Notes under the pieces: model-generated
The model's database searches: none
Told to the model about the DNA's origin: nothing
What the model saw: the letters and a program-made list of their open reading frames with translations, nothing else
Program-made: the position numbers and the translations under genes
Assembly: GCA_003345555.1 (NCBI GenBank)
Contig: PRDJ01000029.1
Location: 1-7,512, forward strand
Direction of reading: 5' to 3'
Length of the DNA: 7,512 nucleotides
Origin: Candidatus Thorarchaeota archaeon
GTDB taxonomy: Archaea > Asgardarchaeota > Thorarchaeia > Thorarchaeales > Thorarchaeaceae
Shown here: positions 216 through 7,512 of the stretch, one piece after another
How the letters are laid out: every line of letters starts with the position of its first letter
Numbering within the stretch: the stretch's first letter is position 1

Positions 216-3200
216 TTACGATTCAGGGTCTGGAGCCTCGGAATGCCCATCATCTTCCGAGGGCAGTGGTACTAGATAGTGTTTCTCAATGGCATCAACT
301 ATCTGGGTGTATACTGTCGTCTCCTCTACGCCAAGGCTGGTCATCTCTCCAGCAAGAGTCTCGAGACCAAACTTCTCCGGGTTCTCCAGCCGGCCCACAG
401 CTTTGGCGACTGTACGAAGGCTCCTTGGCAGTTTCATGTCTTCGACATATCCGTAGTTGTCAAGAAGATGGCCATCGAGGAGATCATCGAATAGCTTCTG
501 GTACTGGGTCGACATCTCAGGATCAACGATACCTGTGGGCGGCAAATCGTAGAAACTATCAAACATGAGTCCGACAGACCTCGCAAACCGCAGGAGTTTC
601 TCCTGCTGCGAATCTGTGGGGGAGCCGAGTGTTATGAATGCGCACATGAGGTTCTTGGTTCTGACCACCCTGATGATATCGGATATCGGTATCACTGCCC
701 CTTCTGTCTCATCGACTCCAAACTCCGTCCTGAACTGAGTGATAGCTGTTATGAAACCCGATATGAGCGATTCATCAAGCCCACTCTTCAGAATCTTGGA
801 GAAAACCGGCAATCCACTGCTCTTGTGCAACACGATAACTCCGATGAGGCTCTTCATGTCATCAAACCTTCTCTTGGTGGCCAAAGCTTGGATCTGACGC
901 CTGCGCTTCCTGTTGGCTGAAACTCTGTTGGTCGACACGCCTATGATGGCGCACATCATGATGAAGATGAATGGGCTCATCTGACGGACTGTCCTTGCTA
1001 GCTGTGCGCTCTCGCTGAGCAGTGGATTCAGAGATGCTTCAAAGCTATCCACATCGAGTTCGTAGTTGTCGAGCGACACATAGATTCGGATTTTCTGCGT
1101 TGTGCCATAGGACGGCATCACGAAGGTCGCCTGATATCTGCCGGGGCTGATTTCTTGGAGCGGAGTGATATCTCCAGGTCCGGGTAATGTCATTATCTGA
1201 AAGGTCACTGACGCGCCAGAGATCGGCTCTCCGGTGCCCGATTTGACTAGCCTAAGACTCAGGGTTGTGTTCTCGCCCTCCAAAGCTTCTAATCCTACGA
1301 CGTCGATGATGCTCAAGCTTGCAGGCACGACGACGAATGACAAGGCTGAAGACCTCGAATCAAAGCCCTCTTTCTCGAATACAATCGTGAGACTGTAGGT
1401 TCCCGTTGCTTGGGGTGCTATGGTGGCTCGATAGTGGCCACTACCTGTGCCAGTCACTTGAACCCATTCAAATCCCGCCCCCTGAACAGAAACGACAGCA
1501 TTCTCAATCCCTGTCGAATTATACATCACGTAGTTGAACGTGAAGTTGTACGACCTGCCATAGATTAGGTCGTTGATCAATGAGATCTCATTGATGGTAC
1601 TAGGAATGCTTGTCACTTCGAGTTTGAATTGAAAGAAGCCGTCCACGTAACCGGTCTTGTTCGAAGTTATGAGTATCATCCAGACGCCGACAGTCTCGGT
1701 CCTGAACGTCAGTCGATAGCCGCCGGTCGTGTTTCTTACTTCACATGAAAGTCCGCTATCAGGGGTTGATGTCATGGCAAAGCTAGCTCCGTCCACTGGT
1801 TGGTTCAAGTCTGTCCGATTGTACGTCACAGTTATCTCGCAAACTTCAGTGAATGGAATGGACTCCTCCGATGCTCCTCCTAGTACTTCTAGGCTCGTTG
1901 GGATGAAGCCTACAACGAGGGTAAAGCCCGCAGTGGAGTACTGATAGTTCTCACACGATGCTTTGAAGGCAATCTGGTATGTTCCAATCTGAAGGGGTTG
2001 AATCGTGATGTTGTACCGGCCGCCCGGCAATGGTACGCAGCTCTGGAAGAGTAGTCCTGACGGTGGGTTCAACACGGTGATGGTTGCACCTGCAACAGGG
2101 CTAGATTCATCGTCTACGAGTAACAGCTGCACTGTGTACGCTTGGTCCATGGCGACACTTGCCCCTGAGGTGCCGACGGTCAACACAGTGGGAGTTTCCA
2201 TCGCTGTAAGAGTGAAGGCGATTACTCTCTCCACATGGTTTTGAAGGGTGGCCCTGATGATGACAGTGTATGTTCCGGTTGTGCTGGGCGTCAAATAGGT
2301 GTAATAGTCACCATTTCCAGAATACGTGAAGGCGAGGTAGCTGAGCCCGGAACTGGGCGACACCTCGGTCACAGTCACGTTTGCACCTGGGAGACCGAAG
2401 CCAGTATTGTTCTCGTAGTGAATGACCAGTCTGTAAGTCTGTCCCATTCTCACTAGGCCTGAGCTACCGTTACGCGAAGATAGGACAGCGCCAGCTTCGG
2501 TGACGAGCAGTGTGAACGTATCGGAGGCCGAGTAGTGATATTGCTTTGTAGCCGTCATTGTCACTGCATAGAGCCCGCTCACTACTCCTCTGAGAGTGAA
2601 TGAGTAGTTACCTCCGCCCATGTCCGTCCAGTCTAGAGACAGCACACCATTGTCGGGACCGCTATAGTCTAGGGTGATTTCTGCTCCATCAATCGGGGAG
2701 CTGTTCGTAAGCGTGTAACTTAGATACACTGTGTAATCATCCAAATATGGGGAGGTTGCGAGCAGGCCACCTACTGATGTGACATCGAGCGTCGTCTCAT
2801 AGAATACTCTTAACGTGAATTGGCACGATGTTGTGTCGTAATATGGCTGGGACGCGTTCACGACGACAATGAACTCCCCGCCTCCAACCAATGAGGTGTC
2901 GAAGTCCGCTTCCCACCAGCTTCTCACTAGGTTGGGATTGTAGGTCACTGTACCGGAAGACCAATTGGCTGCAATCGAAGCCTCATCATCAACTAGATAT
3001 TCTTCGTTGCTGGTATCTGTGTAACGGAGTATGCTTGTGATCACCGAGCCAGCCTCAGTCTCTATGACTGACTGAATGGCAGCCAGACTAGAAGCGTGAT
3101 ACACGTCGAAACCGATGACTGCAAATGCAATCTCTGTACCATTTGTCCAGAAGAGCTCTATTGCCCACAGCCCTGCCGTCGTATTCTCTCCGCCAAGTGT

Positions 3201-4901
3201 CGACGGGGTGCCGTTGAAGGCCCCGTCAACTATGGTTTCAATGTTCTCTTCTCTCCAGACGGTACCATTGGGCATTATCCAAGTGACCTGTGCCGGCTCG
3301 CCTTGGTCGGGTGTGTTCGTTGCAGTACCGAGTTCAGCATGTACTCTCGTCATGTTGCCGGCACGGAAGAGCGAGTCATCTGACCATTGACCTGTAGAAT
3401 CATGGTACTTCTGTGTTGTCAAGCTCTTTGCATAGTTAGGACCATCCAGCTGAACCTCCCACCAACCTATGCGGTTCAAGAGACTGTTCGGAATGGTCAA
3501 CGCACCAGGATTCACATCACACTGGAGTGTGAGATCGTTGAGCAGAGGATCGATTATAGTGACATTCTCCCAGTCTGATGGATACTCAATGTCAATGGTG
3601 GTATTCTCTAGGCCATAGGCGCCCGCCACATAGGTGTACAGCTTGAGAGACGCGCTGTGACCTTGGGTTATTGTGTAGGAGATCCCCGGTTTCGTGGGGT
3701 CCGAAGTCCAAGAAGAGTTAACATACTGATGGAGTAGAAGAGTAACCTTGTAGGTGAATGAGATGGTAGCATTCGCAGTGATTTCCACGTGCAACGGGCT
3801 AGTGGTCCAAAATGATGGGTTTGTGATGACTGCTGTGCCAGCCGTGCCTGTACCGGTGACAGGTGCCTCAAATTCGCCCGCGTGGAATCTCATGTCCGTT
3901 GCTTCAAAATCGGCAGGAACGACCCCCTCAAGCGCTATATTGTCCAGTCGGAGGTCTATCGTCCGTGCGTTTTCCACCCCGTCAGCGACGCCGTCCTCGT
4001 CATAGTCTGCATCGGGGGAGAGCACCAGATTAACGACACCGACAGATTCTGTGATGTACAGTCCGAACATTACATCGAAGCTCGAAGGTGGGCTGGCAAA
4101 GTAGAACGGAATGTCCGAGAGGAAGTACCATGTGTTTCTGGAATCAATGCCGGTCAGCAGACTGATATAGTATCCAGTGGTGTCGACGAAGAATACGAGC
4201 CAGACATCAAGAACGAAGTCGTTGCCTTGGGGGTCTAGTGGTCCGGACGCATATAGGAAATCGAAACTGAGCGAGAAATTACTGGCCAAAGGTGAATTGT
4301 TTATTGTCTGTACCCAGAAGATTTCTGTTGCTTCCCAATGAGTGTATCTCGGCGTGGGGGTGGCGGAATACCTACCGACGTTCGTGGCTACAACGTGCTT
4401 TTGAGTCGAATTGTAGGATGCAGTCGAGTTCTGGAATCCATTGCTCGGGTCGACTATCGAGGTGGTCCATGGTTGCACTCCAGTATCGAATGTGCCATTC
4501 AGCGCGTAGGCTCTTCTGCTGTCGGTTACCTCCACACTTGCCTGACTTGCGAACCAATCGTTGGCCTCATCGATCGTGATATTCCTCTTTGTGTTCGTAC
4601 CAGTGTCGGTCCTTGCTCTCACCTCACTACTCACTTTATACCCTGAGTGCGTCACTCGCGCGGGGTTCAATGTACCGATTACATCATCCTGGGAGAGTGT
4701 CAGAGGAGTAGCATGTGGCGATTGGTGAGTTGTCAAGTCTGGATGTACTGCGGAATCCTCTGCCCGACGCCCATCCTCTTCGCCGCCCGTCATGAGTGGC
4801 TGCTGATAGCTTCCCGGAGTAATGAGCATCGGAAAAACAAGTGCCAACGATAGGAAGGCCAGAATCAGGTGCTTGTTGAGTTTCACGGCGATACATCTCA
4901 C
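216..4901 (-). CDS. Large type-I membrane, receptor-like surface glycoprotein: Ig-like repeat ectodomain, single TM, cytoplasmic longin-like plus winged-helix-like domains
   Basis: 1561-codon uninterrupted ORF (GTG 4901, alternative GTG 4886 giving MKLNKHLILAFLSLALVFPMLI; TAA 216-218). N-terminal basic + hydrophobic signal peptide, seven ~95-100-aa beta-rich repeats, ~29 N-x-S/T sequons all before the TM, hydrophobic segment PFIFIMMCAIIGV followed by RKRRR (positive-inside rule), ~235-aa cytoplasmic tail. The coding call is firm; the product is inferred from motifs. Confidence 0.93.
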   Translation of the reverse strand: MRCIAVKLNKHLILAFLSLALVFPMLITPGSYQQPLMTGGEEDGRRAEDSAVHPDLTTHQSPHATPLTLSQDDVIGTLNPARVTHSGYKVSSEVRARTDTGTNTKRNITIDEANDWFASQASVEVTDSRRAYALNGTFDTGVQPWTTSIVDPSNGFQNSTASYNSTQKHVVATNVGRYSATPTPRYTHWEATEIFWVQTINNSPLASNFSLSFDFLYASGPLDPQGNDFVLDVWLVFFVDTTGYYISLLTGIDSRNTWYFLSDIPFYFASPPSSFDVMFGLYITESVGVVNLVLSPDADYDEDGVADGVENARTIDLRLDNIALEGVVPADFEATDMRFHAGEFEAPVTGTGTAGTAVITNPSFWTTSPLHVEITANATISFTYKVTLLLHQYVNSSWTSDPTKPGISYTITQGHSASLKLYTYVAGAYGLENTTIDIEYPSDWENVTIIDPLLNDLTLQCDVNPGALTIPNSLLNRIGWWEVQLDGPNYAKSLTTQKYHDSTGQWSDDSLFRAGNMTRVHAELGTATNTPDQGEPAQVTWIMPNGTVWREENIETIVDGAFNGTPSTLGGENTTAGLWAIELFWTNGTEIAFAVIGFDVYHASSLAAIQSVIETEAGSVITSILRYTDTSNEEYLVDDEASIAANWSSGTVTYNPNLVRSWWEADFDTSLVGGGEFIVVVNASQPYYDTTSCQFTLRVFYETTLDVTSVGGLLATSPYLDDYTVYLSYTLTNSSPIDGAEITLDYSGPDNGVLSLDWTDMGGGNYSFTLRGVVSGLYAVTMTATKQYHYSASDTFTLLVTEAGAVLSSRNGSSGLVRMGQTYRLVIHYENNTGFGLPGANVTVTEVSPSSGLSYLAFTYSGNGDYYTYLTPSTTGTYTVIIRATLQNHVERVIAFTLTAMETPTVLTVGTSGASVAMDQAYTVQLLLVDDESSPVAGATITVLNPPSGLLFQSCVPLPGGRYNITIQPLQIGTYQIAFKASCENYQYSTAGFTLVVGFIPTSLEVLGGASEESIPFTEVCEITVTYNRTDLNQPVDGASFAMTSTPDSGLSCEVRNTTGGYRLTFRTETVGVWMILITSNKTGYVDGFFQFKLEVTSIPSTINEISLINDLIYGRSYNFTFNYVMYNSTGIENAVVSVQGAGFEWVQVTGTGSGHYRATIAPQATGTYSLTIVFEKEGFDSRSSALSFVVVPASLSIIDVVGLEALEGENTTLSLRLVKSGTGEPISGASVTFQIMTLPGPGDITPLQEISPGRYQATFVMPSYGTTQKIRIYVSLDNYELDVDSFEASLNPLLSESAQLARTVRQMSPFIFIMMCAIIGVSTNRVSANRKRRRQIQALATKRRFDDMKSLIGVIVLHKSSGLPVFSKILKSGLDESLISGFITAITQFRTEFGVDETEGAVIPISDIIRVVRTKNLMCAFITLGSPTDSQQEKLLRFARSVGLMFDSFYDLPPTGIVDPEMSTQYQKLFDDLLDGHLLDNYGYVEDMKLPRSLRTVAKAVGRLENPEKFGLETLAGEMTSLGVEETTVYTQIVDAIEKHYLVPLPSEDDGHSEAPDPES
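264..434 (-). other. Winged-helix-like C-terminal domain (aa ~1490-1546)
   Basis: helix PRSLRTVAKAVGRL, short strand KFGL, helix LETLAGEMTSL, helix EETTVYTQIVDAIEKH, strand YLVP: the a-b-a-a-b pattern of winged helices, followed by an acidic disordered tail. Confidence 0.4.
474..851 (-). other. Cytoplasmic longin-like domain (aa ~1351-1476)
   Basis: Order of apparent secondary structure: b1 LIGVIVLHK, b2 SGLPVFSK, a1 DESLISGFITAITQFRTEF, b3 AVIPI, b4 IIRVVR, b5 LMCAFIT, a2 DSQQEKLLRFARSVGLMF, a3 PEMSTQYQKLFDDLL. This is the bbabbbaa longin topology, with the xxSGL...Dxx(L/I)ISGFxxAI signature seen in archaeal longin-like proteins. Confidence 0.7.
927..980 (-). other. Single transmembrane helix of the large protein (aa ~1308-1325)
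   Basis: MSPFIFIMMCAIIGVSTN is the only long hydrophobic stretch after the signal peptide and is followed by NRKRRR; all sequons lie N-terminal to it. Confidence 0.75.
1026..3095 (-). repeat. Seven tandem ~95-100-aa Ig-like (Big-like) protein repeats, aa ~603-1292
   Basis: Recurrent motifs at ~100-aa spacing: PIDGA(736), GLPGA(836), PVAGA(935), PVDGA(1035), GIENA(1131), PISGA(1226), each followed by GxG/GG-x-Y-x-hydrophobic and, in most units, GxY/W...Y...F-T/K-L. The first unit (603-701) is more divergent. No near-identical DNA repeat is visible. Confidence 0.8.
3096..3380 (-). other. MG2 (macroglobulin-like) / Ig-like domain, aa ~508-602
   Basis: FRAGNMTRVHAEL...VTWIMPNGTVW...TAGLWAIELFW resembles the YRPGETV...DPxG...GxWxI pattern of MG2-type domains. 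Confidence 0.35.
3924..4505 (-). other. CBM4/9-like (galactose-binding-type) beta-sandwich domain, aa ~133-326 of the large protein
   Basis: Opens with NGTFDTGVQPW and closes with LRLDNIALE, matching the NGxF...W / xxDNxxL bracket typical of CBM4/9-like jelly-rolls; rich in aromatic residues. Recognised by pattern only. Confidence 0.5.
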
Positions 4902-5165: not shown

Positions 5166-7214
5166 CTAGACCTCATGCCGCGCCGAGACTTTGACGACAA
5201 TCAGGAATGCCAGAGCACAAGTGCAACCGATCCCTGCGAGCAAGACCAAATATGAGGGAACCGATTGAATGGAGTCCGGTATGTGCGGGTCATGACCTGT
5301 CTGATATTCGATTCTGTTCGTCAGGCCATCTCCATCAGGATCTAGTTGGGAATCATCAACTAGTGGATTGAGACTGTGAGCCTCCTCCCACCCGTCCGGC
5401 ATCCCATCTTTGTCTGTATCATTGCTTTGCGGGTTGGTCTTGAGCAGGAATTCGACGGCATTGGTCAATCCGTCTTGGTCGGGGTCATCTCCTGAGTCAT
5501 TGACAAGCGGCTTGAGCACATTATCGACTTCCCATCCGTCAGACATCCCGTCTCTGTCAGTATCATCGTCTCTTGGATTCGTACGTAGCCCATACTCGGC
5601 AATATTGCTGAGTCCATCGCCGTCGGGGTCGCTAGCTGAATCGTCCACAAGAGGATTGAGACTATACTTCACCTCCCAGCCGTCGCTCATGCCGTCATAA
5701 TCGGAATCATAGTACTTGGGGTCTGTGTGCAGAAGAATCTCGTCTCCATCGTTCAGATCATCATTGTCAGTGTCTGGGTTAAACCGATCTAGGCCTAGTA
5801 TCATCTCGTCACCGTTTGATGCCCCGTCGCCGTCGGTGTCAACAAGGAATGCATTGTGCCAGAATTCCTGACTGTCAGGAATACTGTTTCCTTCGAGGTC
5901 TGTATCATGTACTATAACCAAGTGCACTGTTGTTGCATTTACACCTGTGTTAGTTACCCTGAGAGTATGGATTCCAAGTGCCGACGTGTTGAGGCGGAGC
6001 ACCGTTGCATTTGCAGCAGATTCTTCATTTGTGCTGTTTGAAGCCAGTCCGGACAAATAGGGGTCAAACACTGAGAACTCGAGACTATCTGCACCTGACC
6101 AAGATCCCCTGACGTCGACTTCGGTTGGCATCGTCATTTCAAAGAGATAATCTCGGCTTGCCCCCGAAGCGAGGTCCGTCGAGTACTCAGAATAGGTCAG
6201 CTGACCTTGCGTACGGCTCAGAGTGAAGGCGATGCTGGCTCCAATGCTCGCTATTGCGGCAGCAGCCACTGTGTAGTTGTAGAGAACATTGTCCCATCTG
6301 TCCTGTGAGGTATGGTACGCATTATCAAGTGCCATACCTGTCTCGAAGGCGAATATGTTGCTCTTGTATCCTCTCTGGACGAACGGGTAGTGGTCCGATT
6401 GTCTCCAGTACGGGAAAGAAGACGATGGTGATGGGTAGATGATAGGAGTGGCAAAAAGGCTGCTCATACACCTTGCCATCTCAGCCCAGTATCTTGCATC
6501 CTGATGAATCGTTCCGCTACCGACTTGGTAGTTCATCAGAATCCTCTGATCGGATGGCCGGTTCGGATCTTGAACAAGCAACATATCGACATTGAAGTCC
6601 ACAAGGACATCGATTCTCTTGCTGAGAAACAAGGTCGACACTTCTCCACTTCCGCGAAGGCCCTGTTCTTCGCTGTTCCACAGACAGAAGTAGATGTTTA
6701 GCGGCCAGTCATATTGTGAGAGCACGCGTGCTAGCTCAAGTACTGTCGCAACTCCCGATCCGTCATCGTTTGCTCCAGGCGCCACAGACACCGTATCAAA
6801 ATGCCCGCCGATGACTATGGAAGGCCCGCTTGTTCCGAGATATCCTGGCAGTCTTCCAACCACAGACTTGTAGTTCCCCAGTACGCTTACATTGATTTTC
6901 CCGTTTGACAGACCGACCAATTCCTGTGTTAGCCAGGAGATTGCTTGTGTATTGGCTTCGGAGCCATAGTATCGGCTACCGTTTTCTGTCAGCTTGACTA
7001 TGAACTGCTGGAATGAGGAAACAGAGACCTGTTCATAAACGGCTTTGGCAAGATCCGTCGCATAGACCAAACCAAAGGAGGTTTCTGCCCCGCGCGAAGT
7101 ACCTGACGAATGAATGTCTATCGCGGCAGGAAATTGTCCCTGTACTAGCGTCGACGCTAACGGGCTCAATGTGAAAAGAAGCAAGCAGATTGCAGAAATG
7201 TACGGCTTCTTCAA
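5166..7214 (-). CDS. Membrane-anchored M28-family Zn aminopeptidase with beta-sandwich domain and thrombospondin-type-3-like Ca2+-binding repeats (~682 aa)
   Basis: M28 motifs in order: GGHFD (H222), GANDDGSG (D234), NSEEQGL (E266 catalytic, E267 ligand), NVDM (D294), SDH, YHTSQD (H385). Start placed at TTG 7214 because it gives a signal peptide (MKKPYISAICLLLFTLSPLAS), has TAAGGA 7 nt upstream, and the ATG at 7466 would overlap the divergent gene. C-terminal TM YLVLLAGIGCTCALAFLIVV; TAG 5166-5168. Confidence 0.92.
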   Translation of the reverse strand: MKKPYISAICLLLFTLSPLASTLVQGQFPAAIDIHSSGTSRGAETSFGLVYATDLAKAVYEQVSVSSFQQFIVKLTENGSRYYGSEANTQAISWLTQELVGLSNGKINVSVLGNYKSVVGRLPGYLGTSGPSIVIGGHFDTVSVAPGANDDGSGVATVLELARVLSQYDWPLNIYFCLWNSEEQGLRGSGEVSTLFLSKRIDVLVDFNVDMLLVQDPNRPSDQRILMNYQVGSGTIHQDARYWAEMARCMSSLFATPIIYPSPSSSFPYWRQSDHYPFVQRGYKSNIFAFETGMALDNAYHTSQDRWDNVLYNYTVAAAAIASIGASIAFTLSRTQGQLTYSEYSTDLASGASRDYLFEMTMPTEVDVRGSWSGADSLEFSVFDPYLSGLASNSTNEESAANATVLRLNTSALGIHTLRVTNTGVNATTVHLVIVHDTDLEGNSIPDSQEFWHNAFLVDTDGDGASNGDEMILGLDRFNPDTDNDDLNDGDEILLHTDPKYYDSDYDGMSDGWEVKYSLNPLVDDSASDPDGDGLSNIAEYGLRTNPRDDDTDRDGMSDGWEVDNVLKPLVNDSGDDPDQDGLTNAVEFLLKTNPQSNDTDKDGMPDGWEEAHSLNPLVDDSQLDPDGDGLTNRIEYQTGHDPHIPDSIQSVPSYLVLLAGIGCTCALAFLIVVKVSARHEV
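5274..5906 (-). repeat. Thrombospondin-type-3-like DxDxDGxx(D/N)xxE Ca2+-binding repeats: 8 clear copies and 1 degenerate
   Basis: Motifs at aa 521 (degenerate DTDLEGNSIPDSQE), 543, 565, 587, 613, 635, 661, 683 and 709, e.g. DTDGDGASNGDE, DSDYDGMSDGWE, DPDGDGLSNIAE; spacing 22,22,22,26,22,26,22,26. Confidence 0.88.
5907..6194 (-). other. PPC-like beta-sandwich domain between the peptidase and the Ca2+ repeats (aa ~425-520)
   Basis: Alternating beta pattern (RDYLFEMT, EVDVRGSW, SLEFSVFDP, GIHTLRVTN, VHLVIV), typical of pre-peptidase C-terminal domains; four N-x-S/T sequons within ~35 aa. Confidence 0.45.
6219..7049 (-). other. Peptidase M28 catalytic domain (aa ~140-416)
   Basis: All five Zn ligands and the general base are present (codons starting at 6803, 6767, 6671/6668, 6587, 6314), plus Tyr384 next to the last His as in Streptomyces griseus aminopeptidase. 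Confidence 0.9.
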
Positions 7215-7221
7215 GAGGCGT

Positions 7222-7227
7222 TCCTTA
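7222..7227 (-). promoter_or_regulatory. Shine-Dalgarno-like site for the M28 peptidase gene
   Basis: TAAGGA on the minus strand, 7-nt spacer to TTG 7214. Confidence 0.55.
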
Positions 7228-7402
7228 CGACTTTGCTCCCTAGCTGGTCTATTGTACTTTCTGATAACCGCGGTGTTCTGCTTCCCCGACGTTACGTAGA
7301 GTGGATACCTGCGTACATCTGGCAGAACTTGCCTCTGCTGCTCAGCCAATGGAAACAGATGGATGAGGGAGCAGCCTAAAATTGATGTTGTTTCTCCATT
7401 AG

Positions 7403-7417
7403 AGCGAAGGTATAGAT
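7403..7417 (+). promoter_or_regulatory. Candidate archaeal BRE-TATA promoter for the nadE-like gene
   Basis: Purine-rich AGCGAAGG followed by TATAGA (7411-7416); the usual ~25-nt offset puts the TSS near 7438-7440, just before the SD. Confidence 0.35.
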
Positions 7418-7439
7418 TGGGCACTTCTCCCAAACAAGA

Positions 7440-7445
7440 AAGGGG
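7440..7445 (+). promoter_or_regulatory. Shine-Dalgarno-like site for the nadE-like gene
   Basis: AAGGGG, 8-nt spacer to TTG 7454. Confidence 0.5.
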
Positions 7446-7453
7446 ACACAAAC

Positions 7454-7512
7454 TTGAGAATAGCACTGGCTCAGGTCAACCCGACAATGGGCGACTTCCA
7501 GGGGAATCTAAG
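7454..7512 (+). CDS. nadE: 5' end (truncated by the window) of a carbon-nitrogen hydrolase-domain protein, most likely glutamine-dependent NAD+ synthetase
   Basis: TTG AGA ATA GCA CTG GCT CAG GTC AAC CCG ACA ATG GGC GAC TTC CAG GGG AAT CTA = MRIALAQVNPTMGDFQGNL, matching the (I/V)ALAQxNPxxGDxxGNL start of the nitrilase-like glutaminase domain of Gln-dependent NadE; AAGGGG lies 8 nt upstream. Only 19 codons are visible, so a stand-alone nitrilase-family protein cannot be excluded. Confidence 0.65.
   Translation, partial: MRIALAQVNPTMGDFQGNL

Follow-up and report, generated by a model that had tools for sequence, protein, structure and literature searches.

A conserved longin-fold domain lies at the inner membrane face of a large Thorarchaeota surface protein, behind a single transmembrane (TM) helix, and this ectodomain-TM-longin layout is real and widespread in the Asgard phylum. 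Eukaryotes dock small GTPase switches on this fold, and here it stands just inside an archaeal membrane. Among Asgard archaea the longin is already established as a signature fold; what is new is the architecture into which this known domain is set. We tentatively favour the reading that the protein is a membrane-tethered docking platform which works together with a soluble longin and a GTPase. The window, which is the whole 7512-base contig of a 2.28-Mb genome, carries two long minus-strand genes, and a scan for promoters and terminators gave matches at chance level only. The gene with the longin domain shows the following features (aa, residues of its product):

216 to 4901, minus strand: whole gene, type I membrane protein of 1561 aa (start codon uncertain, GTG at 4901 used)
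4812 to 4868, minus strand: hydrophobic N-terminal signal segment, aa 12-30 (KD19 2.21; conserved in full-length homologues)
1014 to 4811, minus strand: ectodomain, aa 31-1296 (Pfam CarboxypepD_reg 1.4e-10, YtkA, Filamin, Big_1; sequons; repeat motifs)
924 to 980, minus strand: single short TM helix, aa 1308-1326 (KD19 1.64, 19 uncharged residues, family evidence)
849 to 923, minus strand: basic juxtamembrane helix, aa 1327-1351, ending in a conserved K-x-R-F-D-D (helix in the model)
480 to 848, minus strand: longin-fold domain, aa 1352-1474 (AlphaFold2 model, structure searches)
723 to 773, minus strand: longin alpha1, aa 1377-1393, candidate docking face for a partner or GTPase (column counts)
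267 to 458, minus strand: acidic winged-helix-like domain, aa 1482-1545 (model m87fe4680fc2b, pLDDT 85)
219 to 266, minus strand: acidic low-complexity C-terminal tail (from the sequence)

The last 262 residues have homologues in proteins of about 860-2340 aa, with identities of 36-81%, and those with names are mostly hypothetical proteins of Thorarchaeota. The second long gene (5166-7466, same strand, upstream) encodes an M28 peptidase of 766 aa that contains calcium-binding TSP3 repeats of the bacterial type and is anchored in the membrane at its C-terminus; this gene is not conserved as a neighbour in the loci read.

The organisation is that of a type I glycoprotein with an N-terminal signal, a sequon-rich ectodomain, a single TM and a positive-inside flank, where the signal segment was called from hydropathy and conservation and not by a signal-peptide predictor, and the topology from hydropathy and sequon counts and not by a dedicated topology predictor. 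About six Ig-like beta-sandwich repeats form the ectodomain stalk (roughly aa 700-1296; Pfam and repeat motifs, from sequence only), while the N-terminal region before it has no assigned fold and contains a putative calcium-binding loop of the DxDxDG type (aa 299-304; window 3988-4005, minus strand). All 29 N-glycosylation sequons of the 1561-aa protein lie outside and none inside; this large surface protein is probably sugar-coated. The TM itself is marginal in the query (KD19 1.64 against a family median of 1.67) and directly follows an amphipathic-looking helix (aa 1297-1307). We nevertheless accepted the type I topology because of the split of sequons across the family (2.4 per 100 aa before the TM and 0.03 after it), the uncharged run (at least 17 residues in 112/112 homologues scored) and the basic inner flank, with a net charge of about +8.5 in the same homologues. 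Nine distant members have clear TMs (KD17 2.0-2.9). Among 250 profile matches a TM was found by hydropathy in 207, another 36 are truncated or have short N-termini, and six of the remaining seven show a plausible TM by eye.

Between TM and longin the earlier note had seen a basic helical linker that could transmit conformational change. In 104/112 homologues 20-21 residues separate the TM end from Phe1346, the invariant Phe of the K-x-R-F-D-D helix, which is consistent with a rigid helix, and conformational coupling through it would fit this spacing.

The same note had placed a longin with a bbabbbaa pattern at 474-851, C-terminal to the TM. On the minus strand this segment corresponds to aa 1351-1476, and the motifs quoted for it are present (SGLPVF at aa 1362, DESLISGFITAITQF at aa 1376, the basic linker at aa 1331-1348). 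An AlphaFold2 model of aa 1334-1549, computed from a 50-sequence alignment (mean pLDDT 86.5, pTM 0.80), shows E-E-H-E-E-E-H-H over aa 1352-1474 by DSSP, which is the longin topology with an expected size of about 120-140 aa. A structure search returned 40 chains with Z of at least 8 and, among the matches listed, all have a longin or roadblock fold. The best one is the TRAPP subunit 7kmt_K (Z 11.0, rmsd 2.9, 120 residues aligned), followed by a COPI chain (9qpq_L, Z 10.9), sedlin (2j3w_A, Z 10.6), Sec22b (1ifq, Z 10.3) and Vamp7 (4afi_B, Z 10.0). With Foldseek the longin domain found AP-2 sigma as best match (E 5e-4), with AP-2 mu and zeta-COP also among the top ones. We assign the domain to the longins and reject a roadblock assignment because the longin superpositions (Z 10-11, 115-123 residues) include alpha3 up to about model residue 143-147, whereas the roadblock superpositions end at about 116-120, without the last helix. 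Direct searches of Pfam, NCBIfam and PDB sequences did not detect the longin domain, and the link to Pfam longin families runs through the soluble paralogues described below. One of 50 homologues matches Pfam Fuz_longin_1 (E 0.011), and weak matches to DUF7902 and PG_binding were disregarded. The close matches in the ESM Atlas are unnamed archaeal clusters only (TM 0.82-0.86 for the whole 216-aa module).

With a median identity of 53%, against 31-46% in segments of the ectodomain, the longin is better conserved than any other part of the protein; the linker and the alpha1/beta3-beta5 region of the longin are strongly conserved. Invariant residues cluster round alpha1 and beta3 (F-R-x-E-F and P-I-S-D), and alpha1 exposes a face of small residues (Gly/Ala1382 and Ala1386, each in 50/50 homologues), as in longins of the Mon1-Ccz1/TRAPP type, a match by residue spacing and not by superposition. 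The invariant Gly after beta1 and the small alpha1 face are likewise spaced much as in Mon1 (G250/T254 in the case of the alpha1 face), an analogy by numbering. Beta3, which would be the pairing strand, contains an invariant Pro that may hinder edge-strand pairing and disfavour a canonical homodimer. Co-folding of two copies of the cytoplasmic module gave a score of 0.01, which counts neither for nor against binding. With regard to the arginine finger of GAP longins, the arginines conserved in the alignment are Arg1391 at the end of alpha1 and Arg1411 in beta4, and none is conserved in the beta4-beta5 loop.

The longin R-SNAREs Vamp7, Sec22 and Ykt6 also have their longin in the cytosol and on a chain bound to the membrane (Z 9-10), and the earlier note described our protein as their reverse. 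This holds for the order in the chain, with the longin after the TM, but not beyond it: the longin is cytosolic in both, and the protein is of type I with a luminal N-terminus, not tail-anchored, and has no SNARE motif. A longin R-SNARE would have a 60-70 aa SNARE motif beside a C-terminal anchor and the longin at the N-terminus, and we reject a reversed SNARE because the linker measures about 25 aa, Pfam gives no match to SNAREs and the layout is of type I.

Longin and roadblock pairs are GTPase platforms that bind on the alpha1 face (PMC3747258; PMC5216073), and longins are platforms rather than catalysts, usually needing further elements for catalysis (PMC3747258). The region a1/b2 named in the earlier note for dimerisation is wrong, because longin pairs dimerise via beta3 and alpha1 (PMC3747258). 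TRAPP (Bet5/Trs23, sedlin), Mon1-Ccz1, Fuzzy-Inturned and BLOC-3 resemble the domain in fold (Z 9-11), in G-x-P after beta1, in the small-residue alpha1 face and in a helix before beta1. They are soluble heterodimers recruited to membranes, whereas here a 1300-aa ectodomain and a TM precede the longin in the same chain; identities are 5-15%. In Mon1-Ccz1 exchange needs a Lys after the beta1-beta2 Gly and an elbow motif SxDxR; substitutions at G250/T254 in the alpha1 interface (bulky ones), at G232/K233 and in the elbow motif abolish it (PMC5216073). The Lys and the SxDxR motif of the alpha2-alpha3 elbow are each found in 0/50 homologues. The adjacent GP motif before beta2 of the GAP longins NPRL2, FLCN and SMCR8 (PMC12290439) also occurs in 0/50, the family having G-[LIV]-P at this place. 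The domain, which is not a longin SNARE and lacks both the Mon1-type GEF and the GAP-longin motifs, works at most like a GTPase platform.

The order of longin and then winged helix in NPRL2/NPRL3 of GATOR1 (PMC3747258) would be the same as here, with a Z of only 5-7 for our winged-helix-like domain and of 8.4 for the GATOR1 longin; our protein differs in its single winged helix, its membrane-spanning chain with an Ig-like ectodomain and the missing adjacent GP motif. Liu et al. (10.1101/2020.10.19.343400) report NPRL2-like longins from Thor genomes and also fusions of such longins to two-component signalling domains, and the main text describes no membrane-spanning version with an Ig-like ectodomain. 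The N-terminal longins of AP/COPI sigma, zeta and mu and the SRX of SR-alpha are alike in fold, SRX showing that a monomeric longin can bind a GTPase on the same face (PMC3747258); in contrast to the AP/COPI longins the domain here is outside a coat heterotetramer and no partner subunits were recognised nearby. A prokaryotic precedent for a sensor, a roadblock-fold protein and a small GTPase is provided by the actinobacterial conservons with the sensor kinase CvnA, the roadblock CvnB, CvnC and the GTPase CvnD (PMC13343842; PMC13621833), from which our protein differs in having no kinase, a longin instead of a roadblock, one fused chain and no conserved operon. Asgard fusions of longin, Vps28, adaptin, Ig and HTH domains have been reported (PMC11188069), and adhesin-like single-pass proteins are known from a cultured Asgard strain without mention of longin-type tails (10.1101/2025.07.22.663070). 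A literature search on Asgard longins and surface proteins, mostly in the text of papers outside subscription, gave no description of an ectodomain-TM-longin-winged helix protein.

Matches were found in 85/87 genomes of the class Thorarchaeia (73/87 at E<1e-40). Multiple copies per genome are common, as are runs of two or three paralogues in tandem (L004, L028, L029, L030 and L035), so that paralogues with a common tail are expanded across these genomes; the source genome itself appears to have a single copy. A phylum sample of 301 genomes gave matches at E<=1e-8 in 140, of which 72 belong to eight other families, and 9/9 of the distant loci read encode an ectodomain, a TM, a basic helix and a longin.

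Candidate partners are present in the same genome. The family profile finds three soluble paralogues in it (E 2.6e-7, 5.9e-5 and 2.2e-4), with nothing at E<=2 among reversed ORFs as control; two of the three weakly match Pfam Longin or Fuz_longin_1, and winged-helix models are also matched. A tandem pair of soluble Fuz-type longin plus winged-helix genes with frames of 309 and 446 aa (C36:66702-69030, that is L026:12703-15031), one of which reaches the Fuz_longin_1 gathering score, is a candidate heterodimer and has a Rab-like GTPase gene about 8 kb away. C66:9533-10216 (longin plus winged helix) and C55:14148-15359 are soluble longin-like paralogues with the alpha1 signature and hence candidate partners. 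A motif search yielded about 11 small-GTPase-like ORFs.

In the Thor loci read no small GTPase adjoins the gene (wide flanks were covered for the window, L001-L004 and L028-L035, short ones for L005-L024), a P-loop-like match beside L034 being a peptidase S9, and a conserved operon with GTPases was looked for in Thorarchaeia and not found. Asgard gene order rarely pairs longin or roadblock genes with small GTPases (Tran et al., PMC10933270). At L043, the closest non-Thor member (E 1e-42), two genes come next on the same strand, one for a soluble longin-like protein and, overlapping with it, one for a GTPase of the Ras family (Pfam Ras 6.5e-47). The soluble longin is related to the query longin (hhalign probability 80%, E 1.3e-5) and this pair is kept in 9/9 further loci of its own family, while the receptor beside the pair was sighted once and does not recur in the sister loci. 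At nearly every locus read from this Asgard family (L043:1453-2864, G156:C331; L045-L059) a Rab-like GTPase gene begins inside the gene of the longin-like protein, which measures about 275 aa, and L054 and L057 have arrays of two to four GTPases beside it; the orthologue encoded by the source genome (C42:65148-65987) stands without a neighbouring GTPase. At L044:5606-6686 (G211:C5) a distant member has an Arf-like GTPase and a winged-helix protein encoded 1-2 kb away on the other strand. A GTPase is nearby in 2/9 distant loci, which could be chance in GTPase-rich genomes.

We favour the tethered docking platform on the basis of the longin fold with Z 10-11, the small-residue alpha1 face, the soluble paralogues together with the GTPase-like ORFs, the three-gene run at L043 with its conserved soluble longin and GTPase pair, and the layout resembling NPRL2/NPRL3. 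The protein would be a surface glycoprotein akin to receptors or adhesins, with its cytoplasmic longin plus winged-helix module as docking platform at the membrane. The longin would bind a cytoplasmic partner, most likely a soluble longin(-winged-helix) protein of the cell, and the resulting two-longin platform might hold a small Ras/Rab/Arf-like GTPase on its alpha1 face. Acting as a scaffold or allosteric partner, with exchange, hydrolysis or only localisation as net effect, the longin could make local GTPase signalling or membrane remodelling depend on where the ectodomain is or whether it is engaged. Against this speak the missing GTPase beside the Thor members read, the single adjacency at L043, the possible chance in the 2/9 distant loci, the equally high structural similarity to Sec22, Vamp7 and AP sigma, which are longins that do not regulate GTPases, and the invariant beta3 Pro, which may hinder pairing with any partner. 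The stronger version, in which these are phylum-wide single-pass receptors where engagement of the variable, glycosylated ectodomain acts through the rigid helix on the longin plus soluble longin and so on a Ras/Rab/Arf-like GTPase switch, we consider unlikely. If it were true, it would be a prokaryotic pathway from surface receptor to small GTPase made of parts later used in eukaryotic membrane traffic.

Asgard genomes encode dozens of longin and roadblock proteins and small GTPases, and their positioning and activation in an organelle-free cell is at issue. A conserved longin at the inner membrane face under a large ectodomain is a candidate link between the unusual Asgard cell surface and the GTPase machinery. 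The system is tractable, since the 215-230-aa tail should be expressible, partners from the same genome are listed above and L043 offers a ready three-gene set.

The alternative that survives best, though still unlikely, is that the longin acts without a GTPase as a peptide- or protein-binding module for sorting or anchoring to coat-, ESCRT- or cytoskeleton-like machinery. The alpha1/beta3 region is the peptide-binding region in longin SNAREs, and it is here that the invariant residues cluster; the top Foldseek matches to AP-2 sigma/mu and zeta-COP and the tie of Sec22b, COPI and Vamp7 for the best Z point in the same direction. Asgard proteins that combine longin, Vps28-C, adaptin-appendage, Ig-like and HTH/PCI domains (PMC11188069) would also fit such a role. 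However, genes for ESCRT, coat or cytoskeletal proteins were not recognised beside any member, with many neighbours unannotated, and the genes of related soluble longins are coupled to those of GTPases.

Clustering of the ectodomains might instead assemble longin homodimers, or dimers of paralogous receptors, which act directly as GEF for a small GTPase, as the earlier note had proposed. The rigid linker of fixed length and the tandem arrays would suit this idea, as would an Asgard longin deposited as a dimer (8yqg, a match of our structure search) and the helix before beta1, which recalls the GTPase-contacting helix alpha0 of Mon1 (PMC5216073). We nevertheless regard it as improbable, as the Mon1 Lys and elbow motif are missing in 50/50 homologues, the longin GEFs known so far are heterodimers that have additional elements for catalysis (PMC3747258; PMC5216073), beta3 has its invariant Pro and the source genome appears to be single-copy.

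A purely structural tail, which by self-association or binding to the inner membrane organises an irregular surface coat without signalling, seems quite improbable to us. It would agree with the strongly basic linker, the multi-copy glycoproteins and the non-crystalline coat of many surface proteins on cultured Asgard cells (PMC9834061; 10.1101/2025.07.22.663070), but an anchor would need less than a folded tail of 200 aa in which many residues are invariant, and the longin module is absent from the other large surface proteins inspected in the source genome, most of which have short tails.

The C-terminal domain (aa 1482-1545), which the earlier note had omitted, is modelled as a compact fold of three helices and strands. 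Its structural neighbours include many winged helices with Z 5-7 and none above 8, and Foldseek gave no match for it at E<=0.001. Very unlikely is a Notch- or anti-sigma-like release of the tail by regulated TM cleavage with subsequent DNA binding by this domain, since the short TM rich in small residues and the winged-helix-like fold are outweighed by its acidity (net charge -6 in the query, median -2.5; third helix median -2) and lower conservation than the longin, both arguing against DNA binding, by the ordinary strong TMs of distant members and by the lack of a conserved protease neighbour in the loci seen.

Some further observations concern the surroundings of the family. At about 10 loci (L009-L011, L013, L014, L016, L018, L019, L024 and related ones) one paralogue class has a convergent gene immediately downstream, with a product of about 275 aa; this gene is unannotated, and the one copy checked has no Pfam match. 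The arrays at L004, L028, L029, L034 and L035 often follow a run of DNA ligase, 6-pyruvoyl-tetrahydropterin synthase and GTP cyclohydrolase genes, which is probably a conserved chromosomal site. Finally, two other large sequon-rich single-pass proteins of the source genome (C81:14592-19223 and C10:48572-51532) have another kind of cytoplasmic tail, mostly helical and about 190-210 aa long.
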